From contig NW_025964361.1 in the NCBI RefSeq assembly GCF_023055435.1, positions 32,860,001-32,924,000 of the forward strand: a stretch of DNA of 64,000 bases. The letters run 5' to 3'. The notes under the pieces were generated by a model. The model saw only the letters and a program-made list of their open reading frames with translations, ran no database searches and was not told the DNA's origin. The first letter of the stretch is position 1, and the number at the start of each line of letters is the position of its first letter. The DNA is from Haliotis rufescens. Lineage: Eukaryota. Both the position numbers and the translations under genes were made by a program. This document shows, in pieces, positions 1-53,100 of this stretch.

Positions 1-3000
1 CCACATGGAGGTTCTTGGGTGCAATAGATCCCAGACACCACATGGAGGTTCTTGGATGCAATAGATCCCAGACACCACATGGAGGTTCTTGGGTGCAATA
101 GATCCCAGACACCACATGGAGGTTCTTGGATGCAATAGATCCCAGACACCACATGGAGGTTCTTGGATGCAACAGATTCCAGACACCACATGGAGGTTCT
201 TGGATGCAATAGATCCCAGACACCACATGGAGGTTCTTGGATGCAATAGATCCCAGACACCACATGGAGGTTCTTGGGTGCAATAGATCCCAGACACCAC
301 ATGGAGGTTCTTGGATGCAATAGATCCCAGACACCACATGGAGGTTCTTGGGTGCAATAGATCCCAGACACCACATGGAGGTTCTTGGGTGCAATAGATC
401 CCAGACACCACATGGAGGTTCTTGGATTCAATGGATTCCAGACACCACATGGAGGTTCTTGGATGCAATAGATTCAAGACACCACATGGAGGTTCTTGGG
501 TGCAATAGATCCCAGACACCACATGGAGGTTCTTGGGTGCAATAGATCCCAGACACCACATGGAGGTTCTTGGATGCAATAGATTCCAGACACCCCATGG
601 AGGTTCATGGATGCAATAGGTCCCAGCCACCACATGGAGGTCCAAGGATGCAATAGATTCCAGACACCCCATTGAGGTTCTTGGATGCAATAGGTCCCAG
701 CCACCACATGGAGGTCCTAGGATGCAATAGATTCCAGACACCCCATGGAGGTTCTTGGATGCAATATGTCCCAGACACCCCATAGGGATTCCTGGATGCA
801 ATATGTCCTAGACACCCCATGGGGATTCCTGGATGCAATATGTCCCATACACCCCATGGGGATTCCTGGATGCAATATGTCCTAGACACCCCACAGGGAT
901 TCCTGGATGCAATATGTCCCAGACACCCCATGGGGATTCTTGGATGCAATATGTCCTAGACACCCCATGGGGATTCTTGGATGCAATATGTCCTAGACAC
1001 CCAATGGGGATTCCTGGATGCAATATGTCCCAGACACCCCATGGGGATTATTGGATGCAATATGTCGCAGACACCCCATGGGGATTCTTGGATGCAATAT
1101 GTCCTAGACACCCCACAGGGATTCTTGGATGCAATATGTCCTAGACTACCCATGGGGATTCCTGGATGCAATATGTCCTAGACACCCCACAGGGATTCTT
1201 GGATGCAATATGTCCTAGACACCCCACAGGGATTCTTGGATGCAATATGTCCTAGACACCCCACAGGGATTCTTGGATGCAATATGTCCCAGACACCCCA
1301 TGGGGATTCTTGGATGCAATATGTCCCAGACACCCCATGGGGATTCTTGGATGCAATACGTCCCAGATACTGAGTGGGAATTCTTGGAAGCAATATGTCC
1401 TAGACGCCCCATGGGGATTGTTGGATGCAATATGTCCTAGACTACCCACAGGGATTCTTGGATGCAATATGTCCCAGACACCCCACAGGGATTCTTGGAT
1501 GCAATATGTCTCAGACACCCCACAGGGATTCTTGGATGCAATATGTCCTAGACTACCCGTGGGGATTCCTGGATGCAATATGTCCTAGACACCACACAGG
1601 GATTCTTGGATGCAATATGTCCTAGACATCCCACAGGGATTCTTGGATGCAATATGTCCTAGACATCCCACAGGGATTCTTGGATGCAATATGTCCTAGC
1701 ACCCCACAAGGATTCTTGGATGCAATATGTTCTAGACACCCCATGGGGATTCCTGGATGCAATATGTCCCAGATACTGAGTGGGAATTCTTGGATGCAAT
1801 ATGTCCTAGACGCCCCATGGGGATTGTTGGATGCAATATGTCCTAGACTACCCACAGGGATTCTTGGATGCAATATGTCCCAGACACCCCATGGGGATTC
1901 TTGGATGCAATATGTCTCAGACACCCCATGGGGATTATTGGATGCAATATGTCCCAGACACCCCATGGGGATTCTTGGATGCAATATGTCCTAGACACCC
2001 CACAGGGATTCTTGGATGCAATATGTCCTAGACTACCCGTGGGGATTCCTGGATGCAATATGTCCTAGACACCCCACAGGGATTCTTGGATGCAATATGT
2101 CCTAGACATCCCACAGGGATTCTTGGATGCAATATGTCCTAGACATCCCACAGGGATTCTTGGATGCAATATGTCCTAGACTACCCGTGGGGATTCCTGG
2201 ATGCAATATGTCCTAGACACCACACAGGGATTCTTGGATGGAATATGTCCTAGACATCCCACAGGGATTCTTGGATGCAATATGTCCTAGACATCCCACA
2301 GGGATTCTTGGATGTAATATGTCCTAGACATCCCACAGGGATTCTTGGATGCAATATGTCCTAGACACCCCACAAGGATTCTTGGATGCAATATGTTCTA
2401 GACACCCCATGGGGATTCCTGGATGCAATATGTCCCAGATACTGAGTGGGAATTCTTGGATGCAATATGTCCTAGACGCCCCATGGGGATTGTTGGATGC
2501 AATATGTCCTAGACTACCCACAGGGATTCTTGGATGCAATATGTCCCAGACACCCCATGGGGATTCTTGGATGCAATATGTCTCAGACACCCCATGGGGA
2601 TTATTGGATGCAATATGTCCCAGACACCCCATGGGGATTCTTGGATGCAATATGTCCTAGACACCCCACAGGGATTCTTGGATGCAATATGTCCTAGACT
2701 ACCCGTGGGGATTCCTGGATGCAATATGTCCTAGACACCCCACAGGGATTCTTGGATGCAATATGTCCTAGACATCCCACAGGGATTCTTGGATGCAATA
2801 TGTCCTAGACATCCCACAGGGATTCTTGGATGCAATATGTCCTAGACACCCCACAAGGATTCTTGGATGCAATATGTTCTAGACACCCCATGGGGATTCC
2901 TGGATGCAATATGTCCCAGACACCCCATGGGGATTCTTGGATGCAATATGTCCCAGATACTGAGTGGGAATTCTTGGATGCAATATGTCCTAGACGCCCC

Positions 3001-6000
3001 ATGGGGATTGTTGGATGCAATATGTCCCAGACACCACAAGGGGCTTCTTGGATGCAATATGTCCCAGACACCCCATGGGGATTCTTGGATGCAATATGTC
3101 CCAGATACTTAGTGGGAATTCTTGGATGCAATATGTCCCAGACAACCCATGGAGATTCCTAGAGGCAATATGTCTTAGACACCACAAGGGGATACCTTGA
3201 TGCAATATGTCCTAGACACCCCAAGGGGATTCCTGGATGCAATATGTCCCAGACACCACAAGGGGCTTCTTGGATGCAATATGTTCGAGACACCCCATGG
3301 GGATTCCTGGATGCAATACGTCCTAGACACCCCATGGGGATTCCTGGATGCAATATGTCCCAGGCACTGAGTGGGAATTCTTGGATGCAATATGTGCCAG
3401 ACAACCCATGGAGATTCCTAGAGGCAATATGTCTTAGACACCACAAGGGGATACCTTGATGCAATATGTCCTAGACACCCCAAGGGGATTCCTGGATGCA
3501 ATATGTCCCAGACACCACAAGGGGCTTCTTGGATGCAATATGTCCTAGACACCTCCTGGGGATTCTTGGATGCAATATGTCCCAGACACTGAGTGGGAAT
3601 TCTTGGATGCAATATGTCCCAGACAACCCATGGAGATTCCTAGAGGCAATATGTCTTAGACACCACAAGGGGATACCTTGATGCAATATGTCCTAGACAC
3701 CCCAAGGGGATTCCTGGATGCAATATGTCCCAGACACCACAAGGGGCTTCTTGGATGCAATATGTTCGAGACACCCCATGGGGATTCCTGGATGCAATAT
3801 GTCCCAGACACCCCATGGGGATTCCTGGATGCAATACGTCCTAGACACCCCATGGGGATTCCTGGATGCAATACGTCCTAGACACCCCATGGGGATTCCT
3901 GGATGCTATACGTCCTAGACACCCCAAGGGGATTCCTGGATGCAATATGTCCCAGACACCACAAGGGGCTTCTTGGATGCAATATGTCCTAGACACCTCC
4001 TGGGGATTCTTGGATGCAATATGTCCCAGACACTGAGTGGGAATTCTTGGATGCAATATGTCCCAGACAACCCATGGAGATTCCTAGAGGCAATATGTCT
4101 TAGACACCACAAGGGGATACCTTGATGCAATATGTCCTAGACACCCCAAGGGGATTCCTGGATGCAATACGTCCCAGACACCCCATTGGGATTCCTGGAT
4201 GCAATACGTCCTAGACACCCCATTGGGATTCCTGGATGCAATACGTCCCAGACACCCCATTGGGATTCCTGGATGCAATACGTCCTAGACACCCCATGGG
4301 GATTCCTGGATGCAATACGTCCCAGACACCCCAAGGGGATTCCTGGATGCAATACGTCCTAGACACCCCATTGGGATTCCTGGATGCAATACGTCCCAGA
4401 CACCCCATGGGGATTCCTGGATGCAATACGTCCCAGACACCCCATGGGGATTCCTGGATGCAATACGTCCCAGAAACCCCATGGGGATTCCTGGATGCAA
4501 TACGTCCTAGACACCCCATGGGGATTCCTGGATGCAATACGTCCCAGACACCCCATGGGGATTCCTGGATGCAATACGTCCCAGACACCCCATGGGGATT
4601 CCTGGATGCAATACGTCCTAGACACCCCATGGGGATTCCTGGATGCAATACATCCCAGACACCCCATGGGGATTCCTGGATGCAATACGTCCCAGACACC
4701 CCATGGGGATTCCTGGATGCAATACGTCCTAGACACCCCATGGGGATTCCTGGATGCAATACGTCCCAGACACCCCATGGGGATTCCTGGATGCAATACG
4801 TCCTAGACACCCCATGGGGATTCCTGGATGCAATACGTCCTAGACACCCCATGGGGATTCCTGGATGCAATACGTCCCAGACACCCCATGGGGATTCCTG
4901 GATGCAATACGTCCTAGACACCCCATGGGGATTCCTGGATGCAATACGTCCCAGACACCCCATGGGGATTCCTGGATGCAATACGTCCTAGACACCCCAT
5001 GGGGATTCCTGGATGCAATACGTCCTAGACACCCCATGGGGATTCCTGGATGCAATATGTCCCAGACACCACAAGGGGCTTCTTGGATGCAATATGTCCT
5101 AGACACCTCCTGGGAATTCTTGGATGCAATATGTCCCAGACAACCCATGGAGATTCCTAGAGGCAATATGTCTTAGACACCACAAGGGGATACCTTGATG
5201 CAATATGTCCTAGACACCCCAAGGGGATTCCTGGATGCAATATGTCCCAGACACCACAAGGGGCTTCTTGGATGCAATATGTTCGAGACACCCCATGGGG
5301 ATTCCTGGATGCAATACGTCCTAGACACCCCATGGGGATTCCTGGATGCAATACGTCCTAGACACCCCATGGGGATTCCTGGATGCAATACGTCCTAGAC
5401 ACCCCATGGGGATTCCTGGATGCTATACGTCCTAGACACCCCAAGGGGATTCCTGGATGCAATATGTCCCAGACACCACAAGGGGCTTCTTGGATGCAAT
5501 ATGTCCTAGACACCTCCTGGGGATTCTTGGATGCAATATGTCCCAGACACTGAGTGGGAATTCTTGGATGCAATATGTCCCAGACAACCCATGGAGATTC
5601 CTAGAGGCAATATGTCTTAGACACCACAAGGGGATACCTTGATGCAATATGTCCTAGACACCCCAAGGGGATTCCTGGATGCAATACGTCCCAGACACCC
5701 CATTGGGATTCCTGGATGCAATACGTCCTAGACACCCCATTGGGATTCCTGGATGCAATACGTCCCAGACACCCCATTGGGATTCCTGGATGCAATACGT
5801 CCTAGACACCCCATGGGGATTCCTGGATGCAATACGTCCCAGACACCCCAAGGGGATTCCTGGATGCAATACGTCCTAGACACCCCATGGGGATTCCTGG
5901 ATGCAATACGTCCCAGACACCCCATGGGGATTCCTGGATGCAATACGTCCTAGACACCCCATGGGGATTCCTGGATGCAATACGTCCCAGACACCCCATG

Positions 6001-8770
6001 GGGATTCCTGGATGCAATACGTCCTAGACACCCCATGGGGATTCCTGGATGCAATACGTCCTAGACACCCCATGGGGATTCCTGGATGCAATACGTCCCA
6101 GACAGCCCATGGGGATTCCTGGATGCAATACGTCCTAGACACCCCATGGGGATTCCTGGATGCAATACGTCCTAGACACCCCATGGGGATTCCTGGATGC
6201 AATACGTCCTAGACACCCCATGGGGATTCCTGGATGCAATACGTCCTAGACACCCCATGGGGATTCCTGGATGCAATACGTCCTAGACACCCCATGGGGA
6301 TTCCTGGATGCAATACGTCCTAGACACCCCATGGGGATTCCTGGATGCAATACGTCCTAGACACCCCATGGGGATTCCTGGATGCAATATGTCCCAGACA
6401 CCACAAGGGGCTTCTTGGATGCAATATGTCCTAGACACCTCCTGGGGATTCTTGGATGCAATATGTCCCAGACACTGAGTGGGAATTCTTGGATGCAATA
6501 TGTCCCAGACAACCCATGGAGATTCCTAGAGGCAATATGTCTTAGACACCACAAGGGGATACCTTGATGCAATATGTCCTAGACACCCCAAGGGGATTCC
6601 TGGATGCAATATGTCCCAGACACCACAAGGGGCTTCTTGGATGCAATATGTTCGAGACACCCCATGGGGATTCCTGGATGCAATACGTCCTAGACACCCC
6701 ATGGGGATTCCTGGATGCAATACGTCCCAGACACCCCATGGGGATTCCTGGATGCAATACGTCCCAGACACCCCATGGGGATTCCTGGATGCAATACGTC
6801 CTAGACACCCCATGGGGATTCCTGGATGCAATACGTCCCAGACACCCCATGGGGATTCCTGGATGCAATACGTCCCAGACACCCCATGGGGATTCCTGGA
6901 TGCAATACGTCCTAGACACCCCATGGGGATTCCTGGATGCAATACGTCCCAGACACCCCATGGGGATTCCTGGATGCAATACGTCCTAGACACCCCATGG
7001 GGATTCCTGGATGCAATACGTCCTAGACACCCCATGGGGATTCCTGGATGCAATACGTCCCAGACACCCCATGGGGATTCCTGGATGCAATACGTCCTAG
7101 ACACCCCATGGGGATTCCTGGATGCAATACGTCCCAGACACCCCATGGGGATTCCTGGATGCAATACGTCCTAGACACCCCATGGGGATTCCTGGATGCA
7201 ATACGTCCCAGACACCCCATGGGGATTCCTGGATGCAATACGTCCCAGACACCCCATGGGGATTCCTGGATGCAATACGTCCTAGACACCCCATGGGGAT
7301 TCCTGGATGCAATACGTCCCAGACACCCCATGGGGATTCCTGGATGCAATACGTCCTAGACACCCCATGGGGATTCCTGGATGCAATACGTCCTAGACAC
7401 CCCATGGGGATTCCTGGATGCAATACGTCCCAGACACCCCATGGGGATTCCTGGATGCAATACGTCCTAGACACCCCATGGGGATTCCTGGATGCAATAC
7501 GTCCCAGACACCCCATGGGGATTCCTGGATGCAATACGTCCCAGACACCCCATGGGGATTCCTGGATGCAATACGTCCCAGACACCCCATGGGGATTCCT
7601 GGATGCAATACGTCCTAGACACCCCATGGGGATTCCTGGATGCAATACGTCCCAGACACCCCATGGGGATTCCTGGATGCAATACGTCCTAGACACCCCA
7701 TGGGGATTCCTGGATGCAATACGTCCTAGACACCCCATGGGGATTCCTGGATGCAATACGTCCTAGACACCCCATGGGGATTCCTGGATGCAATACGTCC
7801 TAGACACCCCATGGGGATTCCTGGATGCAATACGTCCCAGACACCCCATGGGGATTCCTGGATGCAATACGTCCCAGACACCCCATGGGGATTCCTGGAT
7901 GCAATACGTCCCAGACACCCCATGGGGATTCCTGGATGCAATACGTCCCAGACACCCCATGGGGATTCCTGGATGCAATACGTCCCAGACACCCCATGGG
8001 GATTCCTGGATGCAATACGTCCCAGACACCCCATGGGGATTCCTGGATGCAATACGTCCCAGACACCCCATGGGGATTCCTGGATGCAATACGTCCTAGA
8101 CACCCCATGGGGATTCCTGGATGCAATACGTCCTAGACACCCCATGGGGATTCCTGGATGCAATACGTCCTAGACACCCCATGGGGATTCCTGGATGCAA
8201 TACGTCCCAGACACCCCATGGGGATTCCTGGATGCAATACGTCCCAGACACCCCATGGGGATTCCTGGATGCAATACGTCCTAGACACCCCATGGGGATT
8301 CCTGGATGCAATACGTCCCAGACACCCCATGGGGATTCCTGGATGCAATACGTCCCAGACACCCCATGGGGATTCCTGGATGCAATACGTCCCAGACACC
8401 CCATGGGGATTCCTGGATGCAATACGTCCCAGACACCCCATGGGGATTCCTGGATGCAATACGTCCCAGACACCCCATGGGGATTCCTGGATGCAATACG
8501 TCCCAGACACCCCATTGGGATTCCTGGATGCAATACGTCCTAGACACCCCATTGGGATTCCTGGATGCAATACGTCCCAGACACCCCATGGGGATTCCTG
8601 GATGCAATACGTCCTAGACACCCCATTGGGATTCCTGGATGCAATACGTCCCAGACACCCCATGGGGATTCCTGGATGCAATACGTCCCAGACACCCCAT
8701 GGGGATTCCTGGATGCAATACGTCCTAGACACCCCATTGGGATTCCTGGATGCAATACGTCCTAGACACC
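1..8770. repeat. 37-bp satellite array (about 237 copies, runs off the left edge)
   Basis: Unit GATGCAATAYGTCCYAGACACCCCATGGGGATTCCTG repeated head-to-tail, with variant domains and higher-order blocks. Confidence 0.98.
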
Positions 8771-10789: not shown

Positions 10790-11630
10790 GGGGAATCCCT
10801 ATTCTGACACTGAATTCCCCATGGGTAGACAAGCAAGGAGGTGGGGACCTATTCTGATGCTGAATTTCCCATGAGTAGACAAGCAAGGGGGTGGGGACCT
10901 ACTCTGACACTGAATGCCCCATGGGTAGACAAGCAAGGGGGTGGGGACCTACTCTGACACTGAATGCCCCATGGGTAGACAAGCAAGGGGGTGGGGACCT
11001 ATTCTGACACTGAATTTCCCATGAGTAGACAAGCAAGGGGGTGGGGACCTACTCTGACACTGAATGCCCCATGGGTAGACAAGCAAGGGGGTGGGGACCT
11101 ACTCTGACACTGAATGCCCCATGGGTAGACAAGCAAGGGGGTGGAGACCTACTCTGACACTGAATGCCCCATGGGTAGACAAGCACTGTGGGGTGGGGAC
11201 CTACTCTGACACTGAATTTCCCATGAGTAGACAAGCAAGGGGGTGGGGACCTATTCTGACACTGAATGCCCCATGGGTAGACAAGCACTGTGGGGTGGGG
11301 ACCTACTCTGACACTGAATGCCCCATGAGTAGACAAGCAAGGGGGTGGGGACCTACTCTGACACTGAATGCCCCATGGGTAGACAAGCAAGGGGGTGGGG
11401 ACCTATTCTGACACTGAATGCCCCATGGGTAGACAAGCAAGGGGGTGGAGACCTACTCTGACACTGAATGCCCCATGGGTAGACAAGCACTGTGGGGTGG
11501 GGACCTACTCTGACACTGAATGCCCCATGGGTAGACAAGCAAGGGGGTGGAGACCTACTCTGACACTGAATGCCCCATGGGTAGACAAGCACTGTGGGGT
11601 GGGTGTGTGGACCTGCTCTGACCCTGAATC
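10790..11630. repeat. 50/52-bp G-rich minisatellite (about 17 copies)
   Basis: Unit CTCTGACACTGAATGCCCCATGGGTAGACAAGCAAGGGGGTGGGGACCTA. Confidence 0.95.
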
Positions 11631-15079: not shown

Positions 15080-16158
15080 TGTTTAAGAGGCCCATGGGAA
15101 GGAACTTACAAGATATAATCACTTGGGACAGACAGCCCATAAATCCCCTCAGCTCAGGAATCAAACTCTAACAATCTTGAATGTATTCTGTATTTCACAG
15201 TCACTCTGTTTTTGTTGGATAATAATAAAAAATTGAAAGAATTAACTACAAATAAAAGAGAACAAAGAGAAAGCTGTCTCTGACAGATGTTATGTCTGTA
15301 CTTGTTTGTTGTTTAACACTGCACTTGGCAATATTCCAGCAATATGACGGCGGTCAGTAAATAATCGAGTCCGGACCTAATAATCCAGTGATTGACGTCA
15401 TCAGAGTTACACTGTACACACATAGCTCAGGTCTCAAAATGTGGGAACTATTGCTTGGAGGGGAGATTTTACAACACTTCATTAACCCTTTACATACTGA
15501 GTGTTTTGTTTGTTGTTTACAACTGACATCAGAAATATTCCAGCTTTATGTAAATAAATAGGCCTATAAATAATCGCGTAAAACAAACTAGTGTTTGATA
15601 TAATGAGCAACAATGACACACAATCAACCAAGACATTGAGCCTGACTATCTGATCCTTCTCTATGATGACCAGCACAGGTTGTTGGGAACCAGTTCTCAC
15701 CCAGAATCTCCACGTGGTACTGTACCCACCTTCTGATGAGTCATGCTGGATAGATTGTATGTGACAATGAACACTGATATTGTTGAGACAAATATTAACC
15801 TCTAAATCAAATGCAAATGCTGCTTCTATTAGACTACATATTAATGAATAACTCACCATTCCTATATTACTGAAAGACAGGGCAGACCTTGTTTGGCTGC
15901 TGCCAAATATGTAAATGCACAATGATGTAACTCCACATGCATGAACTTTCAGTTCATCTCGGCTAAAAATAATTGGATATCATTAACAAAAATATTAACT
16001 GTCTCAAACAAATTCGGTCTGAAATGCCAATTGGCAACATTTTCAGCAGATTTAACAGTTAATGTAGAGACTTATTAGACATGCTTATTAGAATATTTGT
16101 ACTATATTCAAGTTTCCGACTAGAGTCCAACACTGTTTAATGTTCTTTCCTTCAAATG

Positions 16159-16425
16159 TTTGTTTTTATGTTGTTCAACGCCACACTCAGCAATATTCCA
16201 GCTGTATGACGTCCGTCTGTTAATAATTGAATCTGGACCAGACAATCCAGTGGAATGACACCATGAGCATCAATCTACGCAATTCGGATATTTTGACATG
16301 CATCAATCATGTCAAGCGAGTCTGACCACCTGATCCCGTAAGTTGCCTCTTATGACAAGCATAGTTGCCTTTTACAGCAAGTATGGGTTGCTGAAGACCT
16401 ATTCTACTCCGGATCTTCACGGGTC
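16159..16425 (-). mobile_element. SINE-like retroposon family B (non-tRNA structured head), near full length
   Basis: Homologous to copies at about 21603, 29140, 34180, 37352, 39448 and 50845, and partials at about 12484, 15300, 28985, 34590 and 59615; short TSD TCAAATG. Confidence 0.85.
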
Positions 16426-17469
16426 AAATGATGTAACCTAGATGATGCTGTTGACATTCATGTTTGAAGTTAAAGGGTGCTACAACAACAGTGGCAGGAA
16501 TTAAGGAAACTACTTAAGAAAGTCATGTATGGCATTGGATACAGGGCTACAAAGATGTCTGCGATCTTGACAACCTTATGTTTTCTGAACCCTGCTCTCA
16601 GCAACAAATATTGGAGGCGGAGAGGCCAAGCGGTCAAAAGTGCTAGGCTAGCAAGCACCAGGTGCTGAGATCGTATCCCGCTAGTGACCGGGTTGTTATT
16701 CAGCTTTGAGACCAACAATGTTTACAGGTCTTTACAGGGTTGTGACTACCCCTAGTGTACAATACATACACCCTGTGCATTCAAAAGAACCCACTTGTCT
16801 GATGGTAGATGACCATGAATACATTCATACACCCGAAACACAAGTGTAAAAAAACTTGTGGTGTCACCCTGGGCACGTAGATGTAAAAACCTTCTTGCAT
16901 CCCTGGACAGCTTGGGTTGTATACTTTCCAGGGAGTTGAGAATGATAACTGGAATGCAAATGGAACCACTGGTCGGGGAACAAATAAAACCGCATTTGAG
17001 CAGATACTAGTACCTGGATACCTGCGGTATATAATAACAACAACAATAATAATAATAATAATAATAATACTTCACGGGACCAGGGAACAAACAAAACAAT
17101 GATATCCATTTTATGTTATACTGACTGGATGTCTACAGTAATAAGTCCAGGAAATATGAACCGTGAACCAATTATTGCTTCAACAAGTGGAAGGGTGAGC
17201 TAAATACCCATCATTACCTTTAGATATCTGGTGTTAATGAGAGGTGGTGACGTAAGGATCAGCTCACAGGTCCAGTTCCAGAGCCGATATTCCTCGATTC
17301 TTGGTTTAGGTATTTCTGATCCTGTGGCAAGGATAGACAGACTAAAATTATATGTCATGTTGGAATGACATAATGGTATCTGAATGTAATGGCCGATAGA
17401 TCTACAGTAGAAGACATATAACAAGAGCATGACATTAGCAGTGCTCAACATTAGTGGAGTGAGTGTGTG

Positions 17470-20995: not shown

Positions 20996-21602
20996 TATCC
21001 CCTGACCCTAAGAATCTGGATTATTGGGGAAAAATGGTTAAATATTTTCTTAGTACTGCCCAGCCTGATAATCACACTTGAAAAACTAGAGTCATCAGAA
21101 GATGACAAAATCCCCCAGGCCCCCACAATAGTAAAATGCCCCACTTTGGTCCCCGGTTAATACATGTACCAAGTTTGCATGAAAAAACCTTCACCAAACA
21201 GTTGATGTATGCTCCATGTTCACTCAAATGCTATTTATAGCTTGTTGTTGCGTGAACCCCATACAATGTTTAACATTCTGCAACCTTGAAAGTCTGCAAC
21301 CCAAGATGGATTTTTTACAAATCCTTGTAATGTGTTTATGTACATCTATAGTAATCAGCTAAGGTCAAAGACTTGCTTAAGTTCAATTGTTTAAACTCGT
21401 CATGACAACCTCTACAATCAACCTTTTTCACGCATTTTATCCTTTCGCTGTTGTCAGAAGTCCCCAAAACATTCAGTTGTTGAAATAAACAGTTTAGTTC
21501 TCTTTCATATGAATATGCCTGATCATAAACATTCATAACAATTTCTTAAAGGTTTGCTCAATTCCTAAATTTTTTAAGCCTTATCCTACCTTGTCCTTTA
21601 TG

Positions 21603-21873
21603 TTTTGTTTGTTTGTTGTTTAACGCCCCACTCAGCAATATTCCAGCTAAATGACAGCGGTCTGTAAATAATCAGGTCTGGACCAGACAATCTAGTGATT
21701 GACATCATGAGCATCGATCCACACAATCGGGATACGATGACATGCATCAACCAAGACAGCGAGCCTGACCACCAGATCCCGTTAGTCACCTAGCCTCTTA
21801 CGACAAGCATAGTCGCCTTTTATGGCAAGAATGGGTTGCTGGAGACCTATTCCACCCCGGATCTTCAAGGGTC
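21603..21873 (-). mobile_element. SINE-like retroposon family B, full length
   Basis: (TTTG)n tail; TSD CTTGTSCTTTATG at 21590-21602 and 21873-21885. Confidence 0.85.
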
Positions 21874-23275
21874 TTGTGCTTTATGAATGCTTGGCCATAG
21901 TCTCGGCCCGAGACAATGTTACAACGCGTACACTTGAGCAGACTCATGAATATAACTCATGAATATTAATTAGACCGTTCACTACGTTAACAGATCGTTA
22001 TTATAACAGAAACAAACATATGTTTTCCATGTATATCTAAAATGATATTATTTGTTATTAATTGTCTGGTGAATTAAACAATTTAAATTGAAACAATTCA
22101 TAATTCATCATATTATGAATACGTAAACTTGTAATGTGTGTGAAAAGTCGTACTAAAATACGCTATTTGAAGGGGGCGTGGCCTAAATGCAAATGTCCGA
22201 TTGGGATTTTAAATTTTCTGGACCCTTGGTCTCGGGGTATGACCAACTGAAATGAACATATCACTGTACAAATTGTGAACATATCCTTAGTATATAACAA
22301 TTCTTCTTGGAATTGACACAAATTTGTGACTCTTCTTAAGATATCCGACAAGGAAATTCTAGCATTACAGGTAATCATGCTAAACACATTCTAGAGAAAT
22401 AATTCCTTTCTCTAAATGTTACGTTATATTCAGCATGATTACCTGTAGATATCTTTGTAGATATTCTTTATCTTGAAAATTACATTCGTGAAACCAGTTG
22501 AATAAATTTTACATGGTTCTCTTTTAGCAATAAGTTTCAATAATTTTGCAAGATTTTAAGGACGACTTGGCCAACAGTAACTGATAGTAAGGCATCAAGA
22601 GTTATGTCCCTTCGATAAACCTGTCCGTGCTGATGAGACATTAGCTATTATAAAATCATAAACCACACGAGAGCGGCTTTATGAAGTAATTAATTTAACT
22701 CGTAAATTTATAGCCGAAATATCAGTGTTTTATATGATTGTAATTACCTTTAAATATACTTCATGGTTGATATAAAATTATCCACGTGTTCGTCCCAACA
22801 CAACATGACTTACTTCAGTGTTTGCTTGAACACTATGTCGATAACTTTCCTTGCTGTAATTCACTACGACAGGCTCGAAGAGACTTCAAAGGAACAACTT
22901 TGAGATCCTGCTGTGAAATCAATTACACCGTTATCAACAGTCTCCAAGTTGAAATGGACATGTTATGCAAGCCATGAACGTGTCGCTCGTGCAGCACGTG
23001 CAACCCCAGCGTCACCGCCTCAATGAATAAAATGCGGAGAAAACTTGTAATAGTGATATACTCAAAATCAAAAGTTGCTGGGTCATATTATTAATTGTTA
23101 TTTTGTGACTTTGTGAAAACAAATAACTTAAAACAGCTCTTTTTTCCCTTGTTGATTAATAGTATACTAGCTTTATATTTGGATGAAGATGCTCCAGATT
23201 CCAGAATGGCTCATGGGTGCAGATATTATGTTCTGCTCACAGGTTATTAAGAAATTTGGATTACCCCCCTTCCAC

Positions 23276-29100: not shown

Positions 29101-32100
29101 ATGCAGGGTTCTACACATTTGCCTTGACCTTATTACCATCTAAAAGGTGACTATGCTTGTCGTAAGAGGCGACTAACGGGATCAGGTGGTCAGGCTCGCT
29201 GACTTGGTTGATGCATGTCATCGATCCCAATTAATCACTGGATTGTCTGGTCCAGACTCGATTATTTACAGAACGCCGTCATATAGTTGGAATATTGCTG
29301 AGTGCAGTGTTAAACAACAAACCAAACCATAAATCTTTGGAGTGGAAGCATCTGATCCATACCCTGGTTAATCCAGGTCCTTTACTAGATTGCTCAGTTA
29401 TGTTTCTTCCAATTTCTACCTGTATCCTGTTTAGGCCATGTTTTATACATATTCTGACTTGTGCGTTGTGGTTTTCCCGAAAATTGAGTTGACATATCAG
29501 GGACTATAAATTTGAAGAAGACATTATAAGAATTTGACACATCCAGTATGGAACTTTCAGGTTAAAATAGTGATAGTGTTGGGGCTGGAATGTGAGTTCA
29601 ACACAACAGGATTCGATCCATCCCATCTGAGTTCAGCACAACTGGGTGCGACTAATTAAAGAATTGAATGGCCTGTTTATCACTTGTTTGACTTGTACTT
29701 ACTTTGCATATAGTTTTTATTTGCTATTATTGATATGTAGTGTTAATTATTACTGACTCTCCCTGGTGTATGTAGGACTACCAGACACGAGGTGCCTTGC
29801 GGGAGTATGATGGCCTCCAGCCCATGCTAGACCTCCTCAAGTCCGAGTACGCCATCATCCAGAAGCTGTCCCTCCTGTCTCTAGATCGGGCTTCACAGGA
29901 TGGTGGGTCCACTATGTCTGCTTCTTACAATATGTCATGAATATTGAATAATTTATCAGCCAGAGAACCTGCTGGAAAAATGAAAGCAATTTCTGTTGTA
30001 TAAGACCTAAACACTACAACCCTTACATGGGGAATGTTGACCGGTAAGGTCTTATGTGGGCTTCTATTTGTAGCGGAAAATCGAGCCTCATTGAGAGAGC
30101 TGGAGGCGATCTCCCACCTGATCAAGTTCTTGGCCCACCCGGAGTGGAACGATCTGCATGTGATGGCGGTGATGGTGTTGTCTAACCTGCTGGAGGATGT
30201 GGAGAGTCTGGAGGTAGGTCATCACTCGCCTCATCCAACCTTCCAATTTGTTACTTGGAGTGAAACACACAAGCCAAACCTATGGTGTAGCCTCAAGGTT
30301 AAAGCATTTACTTTTATGCCTAAGGCCCTGGTTTGAATCCCCAAATGGAAACAATATGTGAATCACATTTCTGGTGTCCCCACTATGATATTGCTGTAAT
30401 AATGCTGAGAGTGGTGTAAAACAATACTCACTGACTCACACAAATGAGGCCAAGTCCCCGGTTTGAATTACCCCTATTGGTTTAATGTTTGAAGCCCAAT
30501 GTTGGAGTACTTTGTAATATGTTCTGTTGCTGGAAGAAAATTAATACCTCTGTCACATACATGATGTTTTCTCTCTGTTATTTGTGTAAATTTAACATAA
30601 ATGGTCCATAAAAACAGAGCTGATTGCTTTAAAGATGAAAATCTAACTGATTAATAATTAAATGACTAGATTTATTTTGAAAGCCTTTAATATAAATTTC
30701 ATACTCTGTGGGTTGCTGTTTACTCTTCATTTTTAACCCTCACATACATTAAAAAGGATATCTGTCTAAAGGATTTGTTAGGTTTTGCAACGCGTTTTAG
30801 TGATGTACAATTGTTAATGCTATGAATGTGTCTTGGTATCCAGCAAATCAAAGAGACTGGTGGTCTGAAGAGGCTGGTGGCAATCATCACTGACCAACCC
30901 CCTGTGGAGGAGGAGACCAAGGGGGGCAAGGCGGACAAAAAGGCAGGGTCGCGCGCTGGCAAGAAGAGTGCCAAGGGAGAGGGTCAGTTTCCTTTATGTC
31001 TGTCACAATGTAATGCAAGCACACTTTGGCATCACTTGTATATCGATACAATTGTTCTCTTCCATCAATATGTGAGTACTCATGATTGATTTGAACATCA
31101 CTTAAAGAGACCATATTATTGTGATAATCCACTGTGGTGCGTTCATGAAAACATGTTATTATTGTAGAAATTTGTGGCTGAAGATTGATGGATTGGAATG
31201 TTTTAAAGAAAAACATTTTACCAAAAAAATGTTGAAAAAATGTGAAAAGTAAAATTATTGACTGTTTCAGTTTTTCCTCATCAAAACATTGTCTTCACAT
31301 TCACTTTTGCCTTCAGTAGCAAACATTTTAGAAAATTAGTGAAATATATTCATCCTAATGTTGTAAAAATTGCAGTGATGTTTTATGTATTCCATTGTCA
31401 ATCTATCCATTCTGCAATGCAGCCAAGAAGGTGATCGAAGAGAAGGATGAACAGTCCCCTGGAGGAGATTCCATCATCCCCACCCTCCCCGATGTCAAGA
31501 TGAGTGCCGCTCGAGCCATCGCTCGGTCAGCACGCAGTGGTCAGTATACATCTATATCACATTGTTTGAATGAATGTCTGTGACTGACTGTGTGTTATCA
31601 TGTCCTGTTTGTGTTGACTTATGTCATCATGCCCTGATGGTGTGGACTGTGTGTCATCATGCCCTGATGGTGTGGACTGCATGTCATCATGCCCTGATTG
31701 TGTAGACTGTGTGTCATCATGCCCTGATGGTGTGGACTGTGTGTCATCATGCCCTGATGGTGTGGACTGTGTGTCATCATGCCCTGATGGTGTGGACTGT
31801 GTGTCATCATGCCCTGATGGTGTGGACTGTGTGTCATGCCCTGATGGTGTGGACTGTGTGTCATCATGCCCTGATGGTGTGGACTGTGTGTCATCATGCC
31901 CTGATGGTGTGGACTGTGTGTCATGCCCTGATGGTGTGGACTGTGTGTCATCATGCCCTGATGGTGTGGACTGTGTGTCATGCCCTGATGGTGTGGACTG
32001 TGTGTCATCATGCCCTGATGGTGTGGACTGTGTGTCATGCCCTGATGGTGTGGACTGTGTGTCATCATGCCCTGATGGTGTAGACTGTGTGTCATCATGC

Positions 32101-35100
32101 CCTGATGGTGTGGACTGAGTGTCATCATGCCCTGATGATGTGGACTGTGTGATCATGCCCTGATGGTGTGGACTGTGTGTCATCATGCCCTGATGGTGTG
32201 GACTGTGTGTCATCATGCCCTGATGGTGTTGACCTTGTGTCATCATGCCCTGATGGTGTGGACTGTGTGTCATCATGCCCTGATGGTGGAGACTGTGTGT
32301 GATCATGCCCTGATGGTGTGGACTGCGTGTCATCATGCCCTGATGGTGTGGACTGCATGTCATCATGCCTTGATGGTGTGGACTGCGTGTGATCATGCCC
32401 TGATGGTGTGGACCTTGTGTCATCATGCCCTGATGGTGTGGACTGTGTGTCATCATGCCCTGATTGTGTGGACTGCATATCATCATGCCCTGATGGTGTG
32501 GACTGTGTGTCATCATGCCCTGATGGTGTGGACTGCATGTCATCATGCCCTGATGGTGTTGACCTTGTGTCATCATGCCCTGATGGTGTGGACTGTGTGT
32601 CATCATGCCCTGATGGTGGAGACTGTGTGTGATCATGCCCTGATGGTGTGGACTGTGTGTCATCATGCCCTGATGGTGTGGACTGCATGTCATCATGCCT
32701 TGATGGTGTGGACTGCGTGTGATCATGCCCTGATGGTGTGGACCTTGTGTCATCATGCCCTGATGGTGTGGACTGTGTGTCATCATGCCCTGATTGTGTG
32801 GACTGCATATCATCATGCCCTGATGGTGTGGACTGCATATCATCATGCCCTGATGGTGTGGACTGTGTGTCATCATGCCCTGATGGTGTGGACTGTGTGT
32901 CATCATGCCCTGATGCTGTGGACTGCATGTCATCATGCCCTGATGGTGTGGACTGCATGTCATCATGCCCTGATGGTGTGGACTGTGTGTCATCATGCCC
33001 TGATGGTGTGGACTGTGTGTCATCATGCCCTGATGGTGTGGACCTTGTGTCATCATGCCCTGATGGTGTGGACTGTGTGTCATCATGCCCTGATGGTGTG
33101 GACGTTGCTTCCAGCGTGACTGGAGTGTATGTCATCCTTTTAGCACTAAGACCACTTTGTGGAACAAGGCCAGGTCTCCTTTCACAGACTGTTGTGATGT
33201 AGTGTCACATATGCACTCTCACTTTGCTGTGGGGGAGAGATTCTCACATATATTATTCATCATATAGCTAGTTCCTACATAACGGCCTGCTTCCTCCCTT
33301 TTTCAGTGGAGAACCGTAAGATCCTACACGAGCAGGAGGCTGAGAAGATGTTGATTCATCTGCTGTCTCATGAGTCAGTGGACGTACAGAGCGCAGCAGC
33401 CCAGGCTCTCGGCATCATGTGTGAGAACCTCAGCAGCAGAGACTCCATCCGCGAGTGGGGTCAGTCACTTGTTACAGTTTATTATGACATATGGCTACTG
33501 ACACTTTAAAACATAACTTCAGTATAATTTTGTTTTAGTTCTATTACTTTACCACTTTATGTTGGTTCACATAACTGCTTAGTGCGACAAGGTTTAACTT
33601 TGGTCAGGCCATTTCAAATATTCCATCATTAAAGTTTTTTTCTGTCATTCAGATATGTGTACCGGTACATTGATCGTTACTAGATGATACTGTTAATTTT
33701 GCTGTTGTATCTGTCCATGAATAGTATTAAAGGTTTTGGGAATAGTCACTCCCAATGGTTGTTTGTATTAGTTGATGCCTGAAGGTATTTATTCTTGTTA
33801 CAGAGGGTCTAGCACCTCTGATCAGGCTGCTCAACTCGGAGAGTGGAGACGTGAAGGAATCTGTGACACTAGCCCTCACCAACCTCACCACAGCCAACTC
33901 CACAAACTGCAAGTCAGTTGTTGCACAATGTTCTTTTTACATCGTAGCAGACAGTAATAGTGATTAATTGGAATCTCAACTGTGTGTCTTTTTATATTTA
34001 ACATATCAACACAAGTCGATAAAAGTTGCCGCAGAGTTTTAAACTTTTGTTAATGAGTGTCTTCATGAGGATGGAATTCTATTTATCATCCAAATCGTTC
34101 TTCCAACTTTTTCAGTTTGTAAACAGCAATAACCAGCGTCTTTAGTCTAAAATGTACAGTGAACCAGCCTCAGTGGTAGAGACCCATGCTTGCCGTAAAA
34201 GGTGACTATGCTTGTCGTAAGAGGTGACTACAAGATCGGGTGGTCAGGCTCGCTGACTTGGTTGATGCATGTCATCACATCTCAATTGATGGAATTTTGC
34301 TAAGTGTGGCTTTAAACAACAAGCAAACAAAGAGATTACTGATTGAGATCTCATGGAGGCTGATGATGTTGCAGTGGTCTTCTAAACTTTGAGATGCAGT
34401 TCCATTATAGCCATATCTCCTAGGATATCACGCAAACGATATCGTCTGTCTAAACCAGTTTTGGACGATAACATGATGTATTGGTCCAGCATCTGGCACC
34501 TTATGCTTATCATAATAGATGACTAAATGAGGATTTGTTGGTCACAATGTGTGCTGATAGTGTGTCATCATACTCTCATGCAGTCAACCACTGGTTTGTC
34601 TGGCTCAGCTAATTATTTACACCTGCTGTGATATAGCTGGAATATTGCTGGCTGCAGAGTAAACCATTCATTGTATCTTTTCTTCAGATTTCATTGTCAT
34701 CCGCAATCTTGTTAGCCCAGTTGATGGTGTGACAGCTTGTCATGGAGCTGATCAGAGTTTGATTCACTACATGAAATGATTGTTGAAACATGATGAAAGA
34801 CATCTTCCCAAGGCAAGGGAGTTAACTGACAATAAAGGCCGGAATATCTGAGTTATATTATGGCTGAACTAACAAGTCTATACATAGTCAATTAAAAAAT
34901 TGTTTAACAAATTTGACATCTGATTCGTAAACAACATGGTGACTGCCATGCAGATTTTGGACGTTTGCAGGATTTGCAAAGCATGTGTATCGCCAATTGG
35001 GCGTTGACAGATATTTTCCAAATCATTTCATTTTTTTTATCAATGTGCTTAAGTGATTTAATGCACAATGAGGTAAGACCTGTTTTAGTACAATATAGAT

Positions 35101-38100
35101 CTTGATTACCGATCAGATCGTCTTGACTGGGTGCCGTCATTTTCTTTGAAGCAAATGCAAGTGAAAGGAGGGGTTGAATCTGATTGGTCGATAGGAGGGA
35201 CAGCCAGTGGTGGTGGTACGAACAAACCACAACATTCCAGCCTAGTTTGACATGAGTGGAAACTAGACTTCTATAGTCAGTTAAGTCCCTTGCCTTGGCA
35301 AGATGGATGACATGAGTGGGAACTGGACTTCTATAGTCAGTTAAGTCCCTTGCCTTGGCAAGATGGATGACATGAGTGGAAACTGGACTTCTATAGTCAG
35401 TTAAGTCCCTTGCCTTGGCAAGATGGATGACATGAGTGGAAACTGGACTTCTATAGTCAGTTAAGTCCCTTGCCTTGGCAAGATGGATGACATGAGTGGA
35501 AACTGGACTTCTATAGTCAGTTAAGTCCCTTGCCTTGGCAAGATGGATGACATGAGTGGAAACTAGACTTCTATAGTCAGTTAAGTCCCTTGCCTTGGCA
35601 AGATGGATGACATGAGTGGAAACTAGACTTCTATAGTCAGTTAAGTCCCTTGCCTTGGCAAGATGGATGACATGAGTGGAAACTAGACTTCTATAGTCAG
35701 TTAACTCCCTTGCATTGGCAAGATGGATGACATGAGTGGAAACTGGACTTCTATAGTCAGTTAAGTCCCTTGCCTTGGCAAGATGGATGACATGAGTGGA
35801 AACTAGACTTCTATAGTCAGTTAAGTCCCTTGCCTTGGCAAGATGGATGACATGAGTGGAAACTAGACTTCTATAGTCAGTTAAGTCCCTTGCCTTGGCA
35901 AGATGGATGACATGAGTGGAAACTGGACTTCTATAGTCAGTTAAGTCCCTTGACTTGGCAAGATGGATGACAGATCACTGAGATAAGGTTTGTGTAACAT
36001 AACCAGTTTATGATTGTCTATACCATGTATGTGATATATGTGTTCCAGTGAGATGATGAACCTGAATGGCCTTGACCCACTGATCCAGCTGTTGGCAGAC
36101 AGTCGGGAGGAGGCTGTAGCCAACACCGCCAGCGTCCTCACCAACCTGGCGCAGGAGGAGGTGCTGCGTATAGAGTGTCTCAACCGCGCTGTCGTCTCTT
36201 CCCTCATAGACCCTCTCAAGACCAGGTAGGGGATACACTCCATGAGCTTTACAGACTTCCTCCAGGGTAGACAACAACCTCCGTGGTCTTGTAGATTGAG
36301 CATCTGCCTTGAGAGTGGAAGGTTGATTTTTCGATGCCCAGCCGCATCATACCAAAAAACAGAAACAGATGGTACTTGTTGTTACCCTGCCTGACACTCA
36401 GCACTAAGTGGATAACACAAGGACTGGTCTGCTCAGCATCATTATACTGTGTCTGAGTGGTGTATTCATGTTTAACTGTGGCATGGTATCTCAATGGGCT
36501 AGCACTATAAAGCTTGCATTAGTCTGGACAGTGACAGAAACTGAAAGTTTAAGTCCACTAGTCCTTATAATGATAACATACAGCGAAGCCCTTAACAAGG
36601 GTAAATTTCTACTAGTCCTTTGTCAACGGTTGGACAGTTTGGCAAGGACTAAAGGACTAGTGCCAATTTCTAACCCTGCATGAATGTTATGTTACATCAT
36701 CTCCTTAAAATTATGAATCTTTAATATGTTGCATGGATGAACCCAACCTTGGTGTCTCTTAGAATAATGTTCAGTTATTATTTTATCAAAAAACCAATGT
36801 TTTACATTGCAAACCATTTACCCTTGTGTGAACATATTTTCAAATACAGTAAACTACGGTTATAACAAACTCAAAGGGACCATTAATTTTAGTTTGTTAT
36901 AACCGTAGTTCGTTATAAGCATATATACAGCATAACTACAGCAAATAGTCGGGACAAAAAAGCAAGTTCGCTATATCCGTCAGTTTGTTATAAGCGTGTT
37001 CGTTATAAACGTAGTTTACTGTAACTTAATATATAATGTTGCAAATATTCCCGAAAATAATGAGGTGAGCATCAGGTCTACATGACTATTTTTTCTGAAA
37101 AAAAGAAGAGAAAAAGTGAATTTTGAGAGATTGCTATTATTCATCATTTCAGCAACACCAATGTCCAGAGTAAAGCAGCTCTCGCTTTAGCAGCCTTTGT
37201 GTGTGATGCTGATGCCAGGACAGAGGTGAGACGTCCAGCCTTGTCTCACCAGCACTGCATATAAGCACTTGTCTGCTTCACTGGGGCTTCCAGGGGCACT
37301 TCTGTTGCCACTTGTCAGTATTATCTTGTCATATATTACACAGAGCCTGTGAACCCGGCGAGCATTCCGGGTTATGATTGGTCCCCAGCAATCTATGCTG
37401 GGTGTAAGAGGCGACCTAATGGATCGGGTGGTCAGGCGCGGTGACTTGGTTGATTGTGTGTCATTGTACCACAACAGCATGGATTGTTTGTTATATCAGT
37501 CACTGGATTGTCTGGTCCAGACTTTGTTTATTTACAGACAGCTGTCCCATAGCTGGAATAGAGCTGAGTGTGGATTAAACAACAAACAGCGTGTGAACGC
37601 ATTTGTGCAATGTGCAGAGTTCTGTCCCTTTATCTTAGTTGATGTGAATCCGAGATTTTACTGGTGATTCATTCATTGTATATTGCAGTGTTTACTGGTG
37701 ACTGGTAAACTTTGCTTCATCTAAATCTGTGCAGTTAGGTCCTAATACTTACAGGTGTGTTCTTTGTTTCTTCAAGCTACGTGTGTCCGGTGGAGTGGAG
37801 CCCTTGATTGTTCTGTTGCATTCTGGGAATGATGAAGTGCGGAGAAACACGTCCTGGGCCATCACAGTTTGTGGTGTGGATGAACCTACTGCGACAGAAA
37901 TATGTAAACTTGGGTGAGATATGTGAATATGATTCAATAGGTTACTGCTTTCCTTGTTAGCTGTTAAAAGATGTATATCATAATCAAGTTTCATTGAAAA
38001 AAAATATAGCCAACAGACATTGGCCAACATGCCAAAAGCAATCTTTTACTAAGAGTGTTATATCTCCATATTTGACAAGACTTACTGTAGCTGTAGCGCT

Positions 38101-50100: not shown

Positions 50101-53100
50101 ATAAATGCAGTATATAAATATATAATAATAATCATTAACACTGTCAGCTTGGTCAAACCATGTCAAATAATTTATTGTTTCACTGAATATAATAAAGAAT
50201 ACATCAACTGTTGACTCGTGAAAAAATATTTGTATTCGTTACCCTATGCTTATGATACTGTCTTATTTGCCTTATCATGTATTTATTGCACCCCTAGTAA
50301 AGTCATTCTCACTCACTTATATCACTGTGCAGAAGACTTGGAGAAGGGTAGCCCAACAGTCAAATGGTTCTCTTGCCAATCAACTGGGTTTTACTTGTAT
50401 AGCCCAATCACGGTGTCCTCCCTCTACTGCAGGTCTACAGCGTGATTTGACTGTAGGAATTCACTTGTATATCTTACTGATGAGGATTCAGAACCATGGT
50501 CTCTTCATGATTAGTTGATATTCGGGATTATTCATAGTTTCATGAGTGTCCTCCATTACAGCCTACCAGAACCACATTCAACTCTTGGGAGTAGAAAGCA
50601 TTTCTTGAAAAAGTTACGTTTAGACCAGGGAGAATGGTGACACAGTGTTTGAAGACTATAAGCTTGTGTTTTGTTGCAGACACTGGCTGACCGTATTGCT
50701 GTTGGATGTTCCCTGACAAGGGGAGAGTACAACCGAGCCTGGAACGAAGTCATGCTACCAGAAGAAGATGAAGTGGTAATGTCACATTTCTCACCAGTAA
50801 TCACTGATAATGATGAAGTTGTCAAATAGGTGTGTGTGTGTGTGTCTTGCTTGTTAAATGCCCATTCAGCACTATTCCAGCTGTATGATGGCTGCTTGTA
50901 AGTAATTGAGTCTGGACCGAACAATCCATTAATTGATATTATGGTCAACTACACTGATGTGCTGTCAACCAAGTCAACGCACCTGACCATCCCATCCATT
51001 GGGTTGCCTCTTACAACCAGTATAGGTTACTGGGAACCAACTGTAACCCAGGATTTCGACAGGTTCCTAACTTAGGCACCTCTTACGACCAGCATAGGTT
51101 ACTGGGAACCAATTGTAACCCAGGATTTCCACGGCTTCCCAACTTAGTCACCTCTTACGACCAGTATGGGTTACTGGGAACCAATTGTAACCCAGGATTT
51201 TCACGGCTTCCCAACTTAGTCACCTCTTACGACCAGTATAGGTTACTTGGAACCAATTGTAACCCAGGATTTCCACAGCTTCCTAACTTAGGCACCTCTT
51301 ACGACCAGTATAGGTTACTGGGAACCAACTGTAACCCAGGATTTCCACGGCTTCCCAACTTAGTCGCCTCTTACAACCAGTAAAGGTTACTGGGAACCAA
51401 CTGTAACCCAGGATTTTCACGGGATCCTAACTTAGGCACCTCTTACGACCAGTATAGGTTACTGGGAACCAATTGTAACCCAGGATTTCCACGGCTTCCC
51501 AACTTAGTCGCCTCTTACGACCAGTATAGGTTACTGGGAACCAACTGTAACCCAGGATTTCCAAAGGTTCCCAACTTAGTCACCTCTCACAACCAGTATA
51601 GGTTACTGGGAACCAACTGTAACCCAGGATTTCCACGGCTTCCCAACTTAGTCACCTCTTACGACCAGTATAGGTTACTGGGAACCAATTGTAACCCAGG
51701 ATTTCCATGGGTTTCCAACTTAGTCACCTCTTACGGCCAATATAGTTTACTGGGCACCAATTGTAACCCAGGATTTCCACGGCTTCCCAACTTAGTCGCC
51801 TCTTACAACCAGTATAGGTTACTGGGAACCAATTGTAACCCAGGATTTCCACGGCTTCCCAACTTAGGCACCTCTTACAACCAGTATAGGTTACTGGGAA
51901 CCAATTGTAACCCAGGATTTCTACGGCTTCCCAACTTAGTCGCCTCTTACGACCAGTATAGGTTACTGGGAACCAACTGTAACCCAGGATTTCCATGGGT
52001 TCCTAACTTAGGCACCTCTTACGACCAGTATAGGTTACTGGGAACCAATTGTAACCCAGGATTTCCACGGGTTCCCAACTTAGTCACCTCTTACAACCAG
52101 TATAGGTTACTGGGAACCAACTGTAACCCAGGATTTCCACGGGTTCCTAACTTAGTCACCTCTTACGACCAGTATAGGTTACTGGGAACCAATTGTAACC
52201 CAGGATTTCCATGGGTTTCCAACTTAGTCACCTCTTACGGCCAATATAGGTTACTGGGCACCAATTGTAACCCAGGATTTCCACGGCTTCCCAACTTAGT
52301 CGCCTCTTACAACCAGTATAGGTTACTGGGAACCAATTGTAACCCAGGATTTCCACGCTGGAGACAAATTCTACCCCATGTCCGTAAAGGTCTTTCTCTG
52401 GTAGGGGTGTGCGAGGGTCCAAAGAGAATCAGGGATGGGGTCACCTGAATGTGACAGCCTTGAGGCATGTGGCATAAAGACAGTTATGCAATTTTTAGGG
52501 AGAGTTTATAGAAATAATGGACAGGGGTTTAACATTGCGTTCTGGATTATTGCACTGATATAGCAAAGTGCATGAATGTCTCTGTGTGTGTGAGTGCATG
52601 ACTGTGCCTGTCCTAGTCCAGACTAATACCGGTTTTATAGTGCTCGCCCACTGAGATAGCATGTTGTAATCTCATTCAAATCAGATCTTAGTTCTCGCTA
52701 TGGCTAAACAAAGATCAGAAGGCAGCTTTCTTTTGTTTTACAGCACTAATTTCAAATTGGTGACTACACTTCGAAACATATTTTGACAAATTCTCAATTA
52801 CAAATTTGAAACCTGAACAAAAGAACATTTTTGAAGGGTTAATAGATGGTACAGATTGTATTGATTCAGTCGTTAAACCCGTAACTATCGTTTGGAATAC
52901 CCCGTGTTAAAGTTTTCGGGGTTGCATGATTAGAAATCACATTCCAACTCTCACTTTCATAATCTGGTAAGCGACGCTCTGATTGGTCTGATGAAAGGTC
53001 GTTCTGACGTGACCCCTTATGGGATGTCTTCAGATCTTTGTTTAGCGGTAGCGAGAACTAAGGTCTGATTTTTTATGAGATTGAGCATGTTGCAGTTTAA

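Follow-up and report, generated by a model that had tools for sequence, protein, structure and literature searches.

How a fixed 5' end arises in SINEs and LINEs that have neither a ribozyme nor a pol II promoter nor pol III boxes is the question raised by two minus-strand repeats in the 64-kb stretch of DNA analysed here (hereafter the window), which a previous sequence-only reading had described as retroposons headed by a structured, possibly self-cleaving RNA. As that reading stated, both copies share the same start (GACCC, minus strand, at 16425 and 21873) and lack pol III boxes: rough patterns for the A and B boxes match neither of them. ARAGORN finds zero tRNA in the window, and an assignment to the tRNA-derived SINEs (SINE2) is not supported. 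Target-site duplications (TSDs) had been proposed for both copies and are borne out for the second one, a full-length element (21604..21873, minus strand) bordered by a 12-bp 5' repeat at 21874..21885 and a 12-bp 3' repeat with 1 mismatch at 21591..21602. They are not borne out for the first one (16157..16425, minus strand), a decayed copy matching a young copy at 85%, for which the TSD finder returns none and a 5-bp repeat is seen by eye in place of a TSD. Its 3' tail (16159..16210, minus strand) resembles the 3' end of the APE/RT/RNase H LINE of this host, and a CAAA-type repeat comes after it.

Both copies belong to a family of ~270 bp with a non-tRNA head, for which a first look at the 1.33-Gb host genome gave 2616 candidates, 40 of them scored. 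We determined the 5' ends of 30 copies out of 40 scored in a separate search, which used the body rather than the head and included the query's own locus: 14 begin at the identical base, which lies 2 nt before the first stem of the head (P1, see below), 3 begin at positions 2–4 and 13 further in, an internal deletion or extra modules being visible in 3 of the latter. The flanks upstream of these copies show no relation to one another, and TSD-like repeats scoring at least 10 accompany 14 of the 30, a count made without a chance control. Duplication of the hairpin module of the head, noticed previously, proved common (15 of the 18 body-selected copies whose head could be parsed; 2 others have one module and 1 has five). 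Inside single SINE copies (L293, L272), this 22-nt module has expanded to as many as five repeats or more.

Judged by sequence likeness to the published figures, the head is that known as 'LP', for a presumed LINE promoter, in SINEs of molluscs and in LINEs of the Nimb/RTE type (PMC4758252). In the available parts of that paper, Matetovici et al. (2016) describe LP-headed SINEs in abalone, periwinkle, oysters and scallops, catalogue Haliotis LP-SINEs (one consensus being 255 bp), and report an LP head of ~70 nt common to the 5' ends of Nimb-17_LMi, I-3_DR and RTE-9_CPB, which they propose to be a promoter while noting an analogy to the dual promoter/ribozyme of L1Tc. Our assignment was made by eye against the scallop 'Nimb-17 homology' copies of their supplementary Figure S2, and not against the Hdi_LP/Hmi_LP consensus; the shared features are the TCGTAAGAGGCGACTAA block, an AGAATT linker and flanking complementary hexamers. 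Like the LP/MESC SINEs, the family has a ~70-nt non-tRNA head, here a 5' head with Nimb-17 5'-end blocks and a homologous motif in host LINE 5' UTRs, together with variable TSDs, a 3' short tandem repeat and a LINE-like tail. The element and its head are therefore already known, LP having been named a promoter without a test, as far as the accessible text goes. In contrast, no RNA fold, viral occurrence or HDV-then-LP order is described in those parts of PMC4758252, and the accessible parts of Kojima 2018 (PMC5786205) discuss RTE 5' parts within SINEs and ribozymes, the fold of the LP head being absent there. The double-knot fold, the viral occurrence and the HDV tandem presented below were not found in the literature searched, which was mainly open-access, so that absence from print is not established. 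Within the open literature, the core head sequence in several spellings retrieved no paper, xrRNA together with retrotransposons nothing relevant, and LP-SINE/Nimb-17 the 2016 paper plus passing mentions alone; the parts seen of a review (PMC6765202) and of a preprint (bioRxiv 10.1101/2024.05.16.594327) hold no description of the fold.

The first ~70 bases of the head are predicted to form two tandem H-type pseudoknots and a hairpin, in the order P1/P2 knot, P5/P3 knot, with the P4 hairpin within the last loop, and comparison across families supports this model. In the first copy, on the minus strand and placed by covariation, pseudoknot A spans 16394..16423 (covariance model R1, 51 bits) and comprises P1 (16423-16420 with 16411-16408), a TG loop of 1-2 nt, P2 (16417-16412 with 16399-16394) and an A-rich loop ending in AGAATA (16405-16400). 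Pseudoknot B, likewise placed by covariation, spans 16335..16392 and comprises P5 (AGC at 16392-16390 with the triplet preceding the hairpin) and P3 (CCCA at 16387-16384 with 16338-16335), its last loop holding a first, degenerate duplicate of the hairpin module (16363..16379) and a second one, P4 (16341..16357), which reads GTCG-TAAGAGG-CGAC in intact copies and is mutated here. In two metagenome families (L035, L033), the loop from P1 to AGAATA takes inserts of 2 to ~60 nt, including a TAAG microsatellite, with both stems intact.

Covariation was evaluated on 23 family representatives that were hand-picked and anchored by sequence rules written after seeing the data; the rows are related, their kinship is uncorrected, and one stem length was hand-set in one row. 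Within this set, paired cells amount to 86 of 92 for P1 (5' CCCG with CGGG; shuffled mean 78.5), 116 of 137 for P2 (76.2) and 66 of 69 for P5 (43.2), values reached by 0 of 5000 shuffles in each case, and the P5 triplets pair as AGC/GCT, TCC/GGA, CTC/GAG, CGT/GCG, GGT/GCC and others. P3, which joins the junction to the 3' tail, reaches z 5.7 and has at least 4 bp in 15 of the 23 rows, being missing or shorter than 4 bp in the remaining 8, among them the DNA virus and 2 RNA viruses. When 19 rows are aligned with MAFFT, blind to structure, both sides change in 6 of the 7 pairs of P2 and in 2 of the 3 pairs of P5. The inner four pairs of P4 do not vary in the 23 rows, an invariance that carries no information on pairing and is partly circular, as that sequence had served to find the rows. 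At the fifth pair, host LINE subfamilies have G-C, G-T or T-A, and most others T-T.

These results can be compared to the four stems drawn by the sequence-only reading. Its two hairpins are real, the first one (P2) by covariation and the GTCG/CGAC one as P4. Its closing stem CCCGT/ACGGG and its GGGT/ACCC pseudoknot can form in this family, but across families both reach only z 1.4 (906 and 947 of 10000 shuffles, respectively, equal them), and are better described as a non-conserved alternative; the swapped pairing, 5' CCCG with loop CGGG (z 3.5) and junction CCC with 3' GGG (z 5.7), beats shuffles, and the fifth stem, P5, had been overlooked. Free-register tests were used here because fixed-register counts are harsh on P3 (45% paired) and on the reader's stems (39-68%). 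ViennaRNA pairs the formerly proposed closing stem in the 16425 copy, which makes it a possible alternative conformer in this SINE, and the minimum free energies of single SINE copies are not unusually stable (z -1.7, 0.0 and +0.4). Rfam returns 0 matches in the whole window at gathering threshold, a check that had been called for, and at loose E-values gives chance matches alone for 14 motif loci, for a single-module copy and for positions 16100-16500. Taken together, the head motif is a real, conserved and uncharacterised RNA module absent from Rfam 15, and both the cross-family covariation and the copies in RNA-virus 3' UTRs support the earlier suggestion of a functional structured RNA common to RTE/Nimb 5' ends.

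Heads also occur in arrays. What had been taken for a single variant at 51 kb does show the compensatory changes described for its first hairpin, but is actually a tandem array in which a 72-bp unit recurs 18.8 times (51007..52357, minus strand), each unit being a whole old-type head according to tandem-repeat and head comparison, standing before a decayed SINE body (50829-51025). A 50-bp satellite of 15.8 units (10798..11591, minus strand) resembles head positions 2-50 (score 50 versus a shuffled maximum of 35 in 300), and a 37-bp satellite of 237 units (4..8770, plus strand) weakly resembles positions 1-31, the pseudoknot A half (35 versus 30 in 300). Including two arrays elsewhere (60 and 68 bp), the match of all five to the old-type head begins at positions 1-3, weakly so for the 37-bp array, and stops at differing points. 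Such a common start would fit an RNA with a discrete 5' end, jumps between templates as it is reverse-transcribed and subsequent amplification at the DNA level. Overall, ~11 kb of the window is satellite that appears to have arisen from 5' portions of the LP head, as do arrays in L253 and L254. Other minisatellites of the window lie at 31586-33103 (30 bp), 35248-35972 (60 bp), 47205-48606 (23 bp) and 60194-60876 (83 bp).

The likely partner LINE was sought in the host with a zinc-knuckle ORF1 fragment from a motif-bearing contig, which yielded 150 scored loci. This LINE has an ORF1 of ~460 aa and an ORF2 of 1230 aa with APE, RT and RNase H domains; the 3' tail of the SINE aligns to its 3' end, and the motif lies ~580-630 nt before the first ORF1 ATG. 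Immediately upstream of the motif stands a 57-nt module with HDV-type P1, P2, P3/L3 and J4/2, a predicted ribozyme that matches Rfam RF02682 weakly and below gathering threshold (E 0.085-0.15). Flanks of LINE copies diverge at the first G of this module, and 14-bp TSDs adjoin it in both full copies checked. It is kept upstream of the motif in 76 of 76 host LINE hits (three differently selected sets, one locus counted twice; divergent host families are under-sampled), and 0 of the 76 start at the motif. To judge from these alignments, the HDV-like module makes the 5' end of this host LINE family and the motif comes behind it. At the 5' end of one element (L048), tandem copies of the motif survive.

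Several further observations concern these LINEs. In one young and abundant family of APE/RT/RNase H LINEs (L193:393-449 in G000:C101, with the related L189-L218 and L295-L352), the element begins with a minimal predicted HDV-like ribozyme of 57 nt that has almost no P4. HDV-headed LINEs are dense in a few regions (G000:C445:31-32 Mb, C46:4.8-6.5 Mb and C101:8.4-9.2 Mb), some copies being nested in others. In three small-RNA runs of related label, 39 reads fall on the SINE and 77 within the 5' region of the LINE, with pile-ups on the antisense strand alone and no sense 5' peak among those few reads. In one run, antisense pile-ups at L193:460-485 and L007:1670-1702 (21 and 7-8 molecules per start) are piRNA-like.

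Outside the host, the 18-nt core of the head occurs at at least 120 metagenome loci in several repeat families, with ~3500 estimated, and in 5 viral contigs, to which looser patterns add three true viral loci. A covariance model built from 15 heads, all non-viral, scores the viral copies at 40-67 bits versus at most 24.5 for pattern-only matches, lower values being obtained for one second tandem copy (26 bits) and one truncated copy (12 bits). Dropped as chance were 13 of 18 looser-pattern viral matches in one search, 7 of 15 in another and one further match (12 bits). Seven RNA-virus-like contigs, representing six distinct genomes, carry the motif: four have RdRp domains, four have tetra-, noda- or S-domain capsids, one is without a domain match, and three of these viral hosts have tombus/noda-type RdRP_3 polymerases. 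The ORF of the 6.1-kb contig has no Pfam or PDB match, so its viral status rests on its IMG/VR listing, and a search for relatives of one viral RdRp returned itself alone. In 6 of 6 genomes the motif is in sense orientation in the 3' UTR, after the last long ORF, at 6, 11, 24, 74, 101 and 124 nt from the stop codon (24 nt or less in 3 of the 6), in tandem in 2 of the 6, and followed by 17-122 nt from its hairpin to the contig end; it makes up most of these short 3' UTRs.

In a DNA virus (212-kb contig), the motif lies between genes, near an NAD-dependent DNA ligase gene. This copy (L256:2480-2557, 63 bits) sits in an AT-rich intergenic gap, ~125 nt past a 157-aa ORF and ~140 nt ahead of the ATG of the next long ORF. 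Among prokaryote genomes, 3 of 11 pattern matches have the architecture, the other 8 being dropped as chance; the three come from host-associated assemblies (titled a clam gill symbiont and two Sedimenticola MAGs), one with a LINE ORF1 homologue following (E 2e-23), and probably represent host contamination, as these titles and the homologue suggest. Pattern searches of viral contigs and prokaryote genomes found no phage or clearly bacterial example.

Which activity could account for these three settings? At the foot of P1, something has to make the fixed 5' end of the SINE; the LINE data disfavour a promoter or a cutter at that site; and the viruses need an RNA role that spares the 3' UTR. 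A block to 5'-3' decay fits all three. We therefore favour, with a confidence that falls just short of even, a model in which the head is an Xrn1/Xrn2-resistant RNA (xrRNA) that sets and protects uncapped 5' ends. According to this model, the head would fold into two stacked H-type pseudoknots and a sequence-conserved hairpin and block the 5'-to-3' exoribonucleases Xrn1 and Xrn2, so that these enzymes would shorten read-through or intronic transcripts as far as the base of the first stem. The SINE, which has no promoter, would thereby acquire a 5' end that is both fixed and protected, and the trimmed RNA would be reverse-transcribed from its LINE-like tail by a host Nimb/I-type LINE. In the LINE itself, the module would back up the HDV-like cut as a second barrier, and viruses would use it to make or to protect a short RNA from the 3' UTR.

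The position of the motif behind a predicted HDV-like ribozyme and in the tails of unrelated RNA viruses points to a roadblock rather than a self-cutter. The retention of the HDV-like module indicates that, in this LINE family, neither cutting nor transcription start occurs at a visible rate at the edge of the motif itself, and it fits a block that acts only after upstream decay. A decay block would be silent behind the HDV product, since RNA with a 5'-OH end is a poor substrate for Xrn1, and tandem copies, as in L048 and two viruses, are what it would tolerate. Published xrRNAs offer parallels in the parts of these papers available to us: those of flaviviruses are found at the start of the 3' UTR and the stop site of the ST9a xrRNA is the 5' base of its P1 (PMC11702639). 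The same text calls a pseudoknot necessary but not sufficient, Xrn1 is not stalled by known frameshifter H-type pseudoknots (PMC10321173, in part), and secondary structure alone cannot reveal a ring around the 5' strand. Other points are awkward for xrRNA activity. Scanning ribosomes are stalled by xrRNAs (PMC10520033, as far as its accessible text states), which sits uneasily with one upstream of the LINE ORF1. The 17-122 nt behind the viral hairpin leave little to protect unless the contigs are incomplete, and with no LINE copy starting at the motif, that family holds no positive trace of trimming.

The main rival explanation, a role in translation, is distinctly less probable. The module would then be a cap-independent translation enhancer or cap substitute, its invariant hairpin and AGAATA loop binding a host initiation factor or the ribosome, so that uncapped HDV-cut LINE RNA and uncapped viral RNAs are translated and SINE RNA is brought to ribosomes, where it captures LINE protein. 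The product of HDV cleavage has no cap, and the module stands directly behind the HDV-like ribozyme. Plant tombusvirids use 3' enhancers, and the RdRP_3 polymerases of three viral hosts as well as the large share of the short viral 3' UTRs taken by the motif agree with such a role. So does the invariance of the inner P4 pairs, as expected for sequence-specific binding, bearing in mind that the rows were found with that sequence. However, an enhancer by itself leaves the fixed 5' end of non-coding SINEs without pol III boxes unexplained, and no Rfam family is matched. Enhancer and xrRNA roles could coexist.

That the head is an unclassified self-cleaver, cutting just before P1 and freeing the element from read-through transcripts, appears improbable. 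Such activity would account for the fixed 5' ends and for the start of all five head-derived arrays examined within 3 nt of the head's 5' end, as multimers of ligated RNA might have, and pseudoknot B follows the order HDV P1-P2-P4-J4/2 with a CTAA linker, but without the P3/L3 core. Small ribozymes are moreover described for the UTRs of linear RNA viruses in the available text of bioRxiv 10.1101/2024.05.16.594327. A cut at this edge would nevertheless remove the HDV-like module, which all 76 LINE hits have, would be at odds with the tandem pair persisting in L048, and would sever viral 3' UTRs 6-24 nt past the stop codon. The head also has no Rfam ribozyme match while the neighbouring HDV-like module is weakly matched, and phage or clearly bacterial examples were absent from the searches above. 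Self-cleavage at the 5' edge, as the sequence-only reading had suggested, is thus disfavoured. Least probable is that the head acts mainly as an internal pol II promoter at the DNA level, possibly with a second RNA role like that of trypanosome L1Tc: its fixed start and its 5'-end position in SINEs and three LINE families (PMC4758252, in part) would suit one, yet compensatory pairing in four stems, its presence in RNA viruses with no DNA stage and the lack of LINE copies that start at it do not.

Returning to the xrRNA model, its wider form is somewhat less secure than the activity itself: a new structural class of xrRNA, exchanged among retrotransposons, RNA viruses and a large DNA virus and present in thousands of copies in animal genomes, may let retroposons that have neither promoter nor ribozyme exploit the 5'-3' decay of the host to generate their own 5' ends, which would add a third route to the two known ones, internal promoters and self-cleavage. 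If the module is Xrn1-resistant, xrRNAs extend from viruses into cellular genomes; if it is a translation enhancer, it would explain how HDV-cut, uncapped LINE RNA is translated; and under either reading an RNA family is missing from Rfam 15. Since molluscs, other eukaryotes and RNA viruses provide natural compensatory variants of this 80-nt module, the question lends itself to a direct test in vitro.

Known RNA systems resemble the head to different degrees. Tombusvirid 3' cap-independent translation enhancers (BTE, PTE) and the tobamovirus upstream pseudoknot domain share with it the 3'-UTR site in viruses of the uncapped type, an invariant stem-loop and serial pseudoknots, but show no sequence or Rfam match to it, and the head also tops non-coding SINEs. 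HDV-like ribozymes mark the 5' ends of R2, RTE, L1Tc/ingi and other non-LTR elements, as the head does, and pseudoknot B resembles their P1/P2/P4/J4-2 skeleton. However, the head has no P3/L3 or P1.1 core, and the host LINE carries a separate HDV-like module upstream; an assignment to this class was rejected as no P3/L3 appears in the parse and the Rfam HDV match is confined to the upstream 57 nt in LINEs. Hammerhead, twister and pistol were rejected on negative Rfam results and on loose core patterns that are negative on single-module heads, the twister pattern matching the two duplicated-hairpin window copies alone. Described xrRNA classes were also rejected, given a covariation fold of two serial H-type knots and no Rfam match at viral or host loci: classes 1 and 2 of flaviviruses have a three-way junction that is missing from the head, class 3 of tombus/solemoviruses and ST9a is a single stem-loop with an apical pseudoknot, and the coremin sequence is missing as well. 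While the head, in which Xrn1 resistance is putative, differs from viral xrRNAs in being found in nuclear retroelements, it shares with them a compact, pseudoknotted build, predicted in its case, a place in the 3' UTR of positive-strand RNA viruses, sometimes in tandem, and an RNA end at the foot of P1.
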